A stretch of DNA of 62,267 bases from Candidatus Omnitrophota bacterium (GTDB lineage: Bacteria > Omnitrophota > Gorgyraeia > JABMRG01 > JAFGKX01): NCBI GenBank assembly GCA_043797125.1, contig JAZDPX010000042.1:1-62267 (forward strand). Reading direction: 5' to 3'. Below, a report on this DNA, generated by a model with database tools, continues. The DNA is not shown here.

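Follow-up and report, generated by a model that had tools for sequence, protein, structure and literature searches.

The giant ORF, whose product has 7,941 residues and carries the proline dehydrogenase (PRODH) domain at its C-terminal end, is preceded by the Shine-Dalgarno-like motif AGGAGAGG, and its start codon is positioned 2 nt past the stop of an upstream ORF of 1,248 residues. Residue numbers refer to the giant protein throughout. The protein forms a singleton cluster, P0241, and the contig is its sole record. The parts of the gene and the palindrome that follows it are arranged as listed.

Features of the giant gene and its 3' flank
3769..27594, + strand, giant ORF, 7,941 residues plus stop (open frame)
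3769..3846, + strand, Sec-type signal peptide, residues 1–26, composed of MKRKIMK, a hydrophobic core and a YGA/SGE cleavage context (sequence inspection)
4117..5073, + strand, Cys/Met-metabolism PLP-dependent enzyme domain, residues 117–435 (Pfam, E 2.7e-62)
14458..14601, + strand, hydrophobic stretch of 45–56 residues at about residues 3564–3611 (Hessa-scale scan)
22501..25032, + strand, C-terminal transmembrane cluster of six helices (Hessa-scale scan and flanking Lys/Arg counts)
25033..25839, + strand, Lys/Arg/Glu-rich linker from the last transmembrane helix to the PRODH, residues 7089–7357 (no Pfam match, no homologue)
25840..27183, + strand, PutA-type PRODH module, residues 7358–7805, with arm helices and a (βα)8 barrel (Pfam core at nt 26086–27090)
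27232..27456, + strand, predicted winged helix-turn-helix, residues 7822–7896 (AF2 model and Foldseek)
27457..27591, + strand, charged C-terminal extension of 45 residues with low model confidence (AF2 models)
27786..27815, no strand assigned, palindrome with a 13-bp stem (8 G-C pairs) and without a T-tract, in the 241-nt gap 3' of the giant gene

The palindrome may be a terminator or a processing hairpin. The Pfam domains tiled on the giant protein are Cys_Met_Meta_PP, TPR repeats at about residues 2200–2850, a sub-threshold Peptidase_M32 fragment at about residues 1479–1538, and Pro_dh; the rest of the protein, searched in 800-residue slices, has no Pfam match. The linker has no Pfam match at E<0.01, and a word-indexed search with residues 6230–7440, which comprise the transmembrane cluster and the linker, returned no homologue. 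BLAST detected no internal repeats in the giant protein, and there is no second copy of the C-terminal tail within the window. The window is also devoid of tRNA genes, Rfam matches, rRNA genes and recognised taxonomic marker genes, and the neighbouring proteins are singletons or absent from the records in an exact look-up. The genes located 3' of the giant ORF encode GH2-like enzymes, a sugar ABC transporter, a PilZ protein, an MFS_2 transporter, a GH94 enzyme and a PKD protein. These downstream genes are sugar-related, and no P5C dehydrogenase, proline transporter or other proline-pathway gene is present near the giant ORF.

The Pfam profile Pro_dh (PF01619) matches residues 7440–7774 over essentially its full length (profile positions 3–272 of 278) with an E-value of 3.9e-52 and scores 178 bits, where the curated cutoff is 27. 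The best HMMER matches among PDB sequences are the PutA of Bdellovibrio (5UR2, E 3.9e-24) and the PutA of Geobacter (4NM9/7NA0, E ~1e-22), and the alignments to the 5UR2 and 4NM9 crystal sequences span E-values from 4e-24 to 5e-22. The blocks AVKLSA, CIDPEEY, VQAYLKD, RLVKGAY, ASHN, MLYG, GYAPIG and YPYVGRRLLE match the PutA crystal sequences one-to-one. A first-pass annotation had placed an apparently intact PRODH with a winged-helix-like tail at nt 26257–27465, corresponding to residues 7497–7899; the domain found there is real, its match greatly exceeds what chance would produce, and all the motifs named in that annotation are present in the order in which it gave them. However, its start is too late, because a profile of the seven nearest full-length relatives aligns with residues 7430–7805 (envelope 7358–7822), so that strand β1 and the arm helices fall outside the annotated segment.

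The structure of residues 7401–7941 was predicted with AF2 from an alignment of 95 sequences (the query and 94 homologues), and has an overall mean pLDDT of 76.9 and a pTM of 0.74. The eight β-strands and helix α8 (model residues 358–372) are predicted with a pLDDT of ~90. The top Foldseek matches in the PDB are exclusively PutA and PRODH structures, with E ~4e-20 and an rmsd of ~3 Å over ~390–400 columns. The PRODH is thus predicted to fold into a distorted (βα)8 barrel with α8 positioned above it. The alignment, in which position n corresponds to residue 7400+n (for example, K102 is K7502), contains 27 invariant columns. The invariant residues include K7502 at the end of β2, D7554 and E7556 on β3, Q7606 and Y7608 on β4, R7634 and K7637 on β5, H7703 and N7704 after β6, L7730 and G7732 on β7, Y7751, P7753 and G7755 on β8, and Y7763, R7766, R7767 and E7770 on α8. 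In the model, these residues are located at the C-terminal ends of the strands, as expected of a TIM-barrel active site. Judged by motif and spacing, K7502, L7730, Y7751, Y7763, R7766, R7767 and E7770 appear to match Lys265, Leu449, Tyr473, Tyr485, Arg488, Arg489 and Glu492 of SmPutA, which hold proline, THFA or P5C (PMC12398946). The Tyr-x-x-Arg-Arg segment of α8 is strictly conserved (PMC6017737).

The query has all of the FAD-contacting motifs (QAYL, RLVKGAY and (A/S)(S/T)HN), and they line up with those of the PutA crystal sequences, with two deviations. Asp7641 replaces the Trp that follows GAY, and Glu7728 replaces a 100%-conserved Gln of β7. This glutamine corresponds to Gln511 of EcPutA. 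Five positions with 99–100% conservation in the 94 homologues are changed only in the query (S to A7500, E to R7726, Q to E7728, M to F7733 and R to F7749), which matches 76 of the 135 alignment columns that are at least 80% conserved. Two insertions, at about residues 7570–7595 and 7645–7668, have low pLDDT. The activity or the substrate of the PRODH might be altered because of the unique substitutions and the two insertions. Nevertheless, both alignment and model describe a domain that is apparently intact: the FAD and substrate motifs and the Arg-Arg pair (R7766, R7767) that the first-pass annotation had singled out are kept, although the domain carries lineage-specific substitutions. The domain is probably an active PRODH.

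Alternatively, the PRODH fold may have been re-purposed, so that it is inactive, acts on another secondary amine, or serves as a flavin, redox or proline sensor that relays its signal through the winged helix. The protein would then be a membrane-tethered analogue of the PutA redox switch and might also bind DNA or a ligand. Such a role would agree with the changes at the five otherwise 99–100% conserved positions and the loss of the Trp after GAY, with the lack of a proline-pathway neighbourhood, and with the attachment of the winged helix directly after α8, the helix that contributes substrate-binding residues. However, the contacts to the substrate carboxylate and ring and the FAD motifs assigned by homology are all intact. 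The tyrosine that aligns by spacing with Y540 of EcPutA is also kept; we take Y540 to be linked to the selectivity for proline versus hydroxyproline, in line with the title of PDB entry 3E2Q. Furthermore, the substitutions E to R7726, Q to E7728 and R to F7749, on the adjacent strands β7 and β8, look less like decay than like compensating changes by which a buried polar cluster was re-paired. We consider re-purposing quite improbable.

In the full AF2 model, the barrel is followed by three helices with pLDDT of 55–64. When residues 7805–7941 were modelled alone from the single sequence, helices were predicted at segment positions 18–32, 41–52, 58–70 and 104–115, and strands at positions 38–40, 74–77 and 89–92. 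The core of this tail model has a pLDDT of 72–86, and its elements follow the order H1-S1-H2-H3-S2-wing-S3 at residues 7822–7896; an extra helix may form after the winged helix at residues 7908–7919. The top 50 Foldseek matches inspected are winged-helix proteins (PadR, LmrR, the MarR family, Cdt1 and STIV F93), with E ~7e-3 and target-normalised TM scores of up to 0.76. Pfam matches of the tail are sub-threshold only (ANAPC2 winged helix, E 0.027; Mnd1 HTH, E 0.18), there is no match to the PadR family PF03551, and when residues 7775–7941 were searched with HMMER against the full set of 1.84 billion representatives, only the giant protein itself was recovered. The winged-helix-like tail proposed in the first-pass annotation is therefore predicted, with moderate confidence, from the single-sequence AF2 model and the Foldseek matches.

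The same annotation had suggested that a DNA- or ligand-binding tail would be a rearranged analogue of the DNA-binding domain of PutA, and this part of the proposal was not supported: the PutA domain is a ribbon-helix-helix (RHH) and not a winged helix (PMC5293562), the tail has no homologue among the representatives searched, and it is net acidic. The predicted winged helix contains 9 Lys/Arg and 11 Asp/Glu residues, and its third helix H3 (SNEKMAEILDALLKEG) is acidic. Because of this charge and its position at the end of a membrane-anchored protein, DNA binding by the predicted winged helix is not supported, which also argues against a sensor that relays to DNA.

The sidedness of the PRODH depends on the number of transmembrane helices that precede it. 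A heuristic scan using the Hessa and Kyte-Doolittle scales identified 7–9 hydrophobic helices in total. The six C-terminal helices are located at about residues 6245–6265, 6278–6298, 6874–6896, 6981–7001, 7012–7032 and 7058–7088, the last of which is a long single helix. The stretch at residues ~3564–3611 might form one or two membrane crossings, and most of the ambiguity in the topology stems from it. Lys and Arg are frequent before residue 6245, after 6298, before 6874, in the loop 7002–7011 and after 7088, and infrequent on the other faces. Within 15-residue flanks of the last six helices, Lys and Arg add up to about 17 on the side proposed to be cytoplasmic, compared with 5 on the opposite side. 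Because of this alternation, residues 7089–7941 are placed in the cytoplasm. Topologies were also enumerated with the N-terminus set outside by the signal peptide. The best-scoring topology from clear segments only has seven transmembrane helices, the C-terminus inside and a positive-inside bias of +13, and the addition of one weak upstream segment together with the two-helix reading of the ambiguous stretch raises the bias to +18 to +21. Counting the weak segment at residues 7219–7237 as well produces a tie at +21 with the C-terminus outside, but this segment scores poorly as a transmembrane helix. A naive count of the signal peptide and eight transmembrane helices puts the C-terminus outside with a bias of −19. 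The first-pass annotation had considered the PRODH probably cytoplasmic, provided that the transmembrane parity allowed it; the positive-inside rule favours this location, whereas helix parity and the signal peptides of the nearest relatives point the other way. We regard the cytoplasm as the fairly likely location of the PRODH module.

The nearest relatives of the PRODH, P0001–P0009, belong to an unnamed clade of ~520-residue PRODH-like proteins with N-terminal Sec/Tat signal peptides. They are 32–37% identical to the query and score 138–199 bits (173–199 bits for P0001–P0008), compared with at most 137 bits for PutA-type matches. All seven of the full-length nearest relatives (P0001, P0002, P0004, P0005, P0006, P0007 and P0009) begin with a signal peptide. 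P0009 contains the textbook twin-arginine motif DRRVFLK, and the other full-length relatives have positively charged n-regions and an ASA/SGQPEE-type cleavage context.

The other end of the giant protein carries a second enzyme module. The PLP-dependent enzyme domain is part of a conserved N-terminal module of ~790 residues, and the dipeptide T250-K251, putatively assigned by analogy to the PLP-binding lysine motif, is conserved. The homologues of the module are three standalone proteins and one copy within a long ORF from a MAG of Omnitrophica WOR_2, and they are 40–50% identical to it over the whole aligned module; in local BLASTP alignments of the first 600 residues, the identities are 53, 50 and 37%. 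The standalone homologues (P0121–P0123) have 787–925 residues and carry signal peptides, with N-termini of the same kind as that of the giant protein. One of them, at locus L003, adjoins a gene with a hexokinase domain; Pfam detected no hexokinase domain in the giant protein. The embedded copy occupies residues ~1271–1930 of an ORF that spans at least 2,359 residues and is truncated by the edge of contig MHGW01000038; its identity is 48% across 714 aligned residues and reaches 51% in the best tblastn segment. No other named relative was found for any part of the giant protein, so that an Omnitrophota origin of the window is likely, although the assignment is indirect. Every homologue of the PLP module comes after a signal peptide or a transmembrane helix with a short preceding basic stretch (KRRNF), and the module is evidently exported in all of them, as judged from these sequences. 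Therefore, cofactor-containing enzymes outside the cytoplasm are conceivable in this lineage.

The eight-helix parity, the signal peptides of the seven nearest relatives and the exported PLP module all speak against the cytoplasmic side, and we consider an extracytoplasmic PRODH module a possibility, if a lesser one. The same enzyme might act at the cell surface or in the periplasm on external or host- or prey-derived amino acids and so belong to the surface apparatus, episymbiotic or predatory, that has been proposed for Omnitrophota giants, but this appears rather doubtful. In its favour, the seven relatives share the ENPxI...G..LRxG insertion with the query, and most annotated domains of Omnitrophota giants are predicted to be extracellular, although these predictions are unreliable (bioRxiv 10.1101/2023.11.21.568195). 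On the other hand, this placement strongly violates the positive-inside rule, with a bias of −19 compared with +13 to +21: the flank after the last helix is KGRVIWATWELSPRK, and that before it is acidic. An 850-residue C-terminal segment would presumably have to cross the membrane unfolded through Sec and acquire FAD outside, and Tat export, a possible solution in the exported clade, should be unusable after transmembrane helices. An unlikely elaboration is that the PRODH and PLP modules are displayed together on an envelope-anchored giant. The PRODH would then descend from the exported PRODH-like clade and oxidise host or prey proline at the cell–cell interface, electrons would reach the membrane from its outer face or end in reactive products, and the winged helix would serve for docking. 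If true, amino-acid catabolism outside the cytoplasm would be built into a giant surface protein. The finding would gain considerably in importance if the module worked outside the cytoplasm.

Fusion of a PRODH to a giant protein is rare. The 120 best protein matches to the C-terminal 541 residues are all at most 946 residues long, and of the metagenomic PRODH loci, which number at least 571, the 80 best are all in ORFs of at most 1,178 residues. A recurrent PRODH-in-giant architecture was therefore rejected. Close relatives of the last 941 residues are absent from 185,579 species genomes and from the JGI metagenomes. As far as the sequences searched indicate, both the PRODH-in-giant combination and that of PRODH with a winged helix would be unique. 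The lack of a P5C dehydrogenase is ordinary, since many of the 120 best matches are PutA-type PRODHs of ~460 residues without an ALDH domain. No Aldedh domain (PF00171) is present in the giant protein or in any other ORF of the window, and the giant protein has no Pfam match to an RHH DNA-binding domain or to the PutA N-terminal arm domain PF18083. The absence of the ALDH and RHH features places the giant protein outside the PutA family proper.

A unique fusion could also be a mis-assembly of the MAG or an in-frame chimera, with the PRODH being a separate, ordinary gene. The singleton status of the protein and its single contig record are compatible with such an origin, as are the nearest PRODH relatives, which are standalone proteins of ~520 residues, and the GC3, which rises from 0.34–0.42 in the first 7,000 codons to 0.43–0.46 in the last ~900 and so nears that of the downstream genes. 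However, the shift in GC3 starts at about residue 7001, within the transmembrane cluster rather than at a domain border, and the frame stays open for 23.8 kb in DNA of ~39% G+C. No in-frame Shine-Dalgarno motif with ATG or GTG is present between residues 7241 and 7743, which makes separate translation of the PRODH unlikely. Moreover, the fusion of modules that elsewhere stand alone into long mosaic ORFs is documented as the norm for this lineage. An artefactual fusion of the giant ORF is improbable, and we give it the least weight of the readings considered here.

The explanation that we prefer is that the C-terminus of the giant protein is a divergent, catalytically competent, FAD-dependent PRODH of the PutA type on the cytoplasmic face of the inner membrane; taken as a whole, we rate its chances as about even. 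The last six transmembrane helices would tether the PRODH permanently to the membrane through a linker of ~270–340 residues. The enzyme would oxidise L-proline to P5C and pass the electrons to the membrane quinone or another membrane-proximal acceptor. Because the PRODH would be held permanently at the membrane, the electron transfer would not require the redox-triggered membrane recruitment of PutA. The winged helix would most likely be a module for protein–protein contacts, dimerisation or the binding of a small ligand, and not for DNA binding. The PRODH would be one module of a mosaic "multi-enzyme" giant that also comprises a signal peptide, an exported PLP module, TPR repeats and transmembrane clusters. 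A complete electron-transport chain or quinone synthesis is missing from many Omnitrophota (PMC10066038). The identity of the acceptor is therefore a weak point of the mechanism, since both are patchy in the phylum; the lack of proline-pathway genes in the neighbourhood and the lineage-specific substitutions of the domain are two others.

PutA and PRODH are model systems for redox-controlled peripheral membrane binding, of which a PRODH tethered by transmembrane helices would be a "locked-on" natural variant. The domains reported for Omnitrophota giants in the papers searched are mostly related to sugars and regulation; the module extends them by an amino-acid-oxidising flavoenzyme and sharpens the question of the side of the membrane on which the enzyme modules of giant proteins work. 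The so far undescribed clade of signal-peptide-bearing PRODH-like proteins P0001–P0009 is perhaps the more original lead.

The proteins of this clade resemble the query in the ENPxI...G..LRxG insertion and in GDA instead of GEA in the β1-α1 loop. They differ in being small and standalone, in the absence of the winged-helix tail, and in having GRRF(x)EL and ATHN where the query has RRLLE and ASHN. The PRODH domains of PutA (5UR2, 4NM9) have in common with the query the FAD and substrate motifs and a distorted (βα)8 barrel topped by α8, with a sequence identity of about 23–25%. However, the query contains two insertions and several unique substitutions relative to these structures, and has no fused P5C/GSAL dehydrogenase or channelling partner. 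PutA binds to the membrane peripherally and in a redox-dependent manner, whereas the PRODH of the query is covalently anchored by transmembrane helices. The standalone PutA-type PRODHs of ~460 residues, which consist of PF18083 and PF01619 and occur in Planctomycetota, Cyanobacteria and others, lack ALDH, as does the query. Unlike the query, they are soluble, carry PF18083, which was undetected in the query, and have neither a transmembrane tether nor a winged helix.

The predicted H1-S1-H2-H3-S2-wing-S3 arrangement of the tail is shared with the winged helix-turn-helix domains of PadR, LmrR and MarR, and the possible trailing helix is similar to that of PadR-like proteins. In contrast to these proteins, the tail belongs to no sequence family, has an acidic net charge and forms the C-terminus of a membrane protein. 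The RHH domain of trifunctional PutA shares with the tail only a nucleic-acid-binding-type fold attached to a PRODH; it has a different fold, is located at the opposite terminus and is not homologous to the tail.

ORFs of more than 20 kb occur commonly across Omnitrophota (PMC10066038), and the giant proteins of this phylum have numerous transmembrane helices and scattered metabolic enzyme domains, the sidedness predictions of which are unreliable (bioRxiv 10.1101/2023.11.21.568195). A class of "multi-enzyme metabolic clusters" with a signal peptide and transmembrane helices was defined in a 2026 catalogue, according to which 94% of the long proteins have a signal peptide and/or transmembrane helices and most such proteins are singletons (bioRxiv 10.64898/2026.06.07.730766). 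Like the giants of this class and those of the Archaeovorin type, the query is encoded by a very long ORF (23.8 kb), has a signal peptide, several transmembrane clusters, unrelated enzyme domains tiled along the chain, TPR scaffolding and a mostly unannotated, poorly conserved body, and is a singleton. With 7,941 residues, it is below the cut-off of at least 10,000 residues used in the 2023 and 2026 preprints, but its 23.8 kb pass the limit of more than 20 kb (PMC10066038). A divergent SecA_DEAD domain occurs in "most" full-length giants and is not a strict requirement of the class (West-Roberts et al.); a search of the giant protein in ten 800-residue slices gave no SecA match at E≤0.05, and no peptidase C39 or dockerin domains were detected. 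The main texts of PMC10066038, bioRxiv 10.1101/2023.11.21.568195 and bioRxiv 10.64898/2026.06.07.730766 make no mention of proline dehydrogenase, and the searchable supplementary text of the two preprints contains no PF01619 or PF01053 entries. The giant protein is best filed with the known class of multi-enzyme membrane giants, probably of Omnitrophota, as a member whose PRODH and orphan winged helix are previously unreported cargo.

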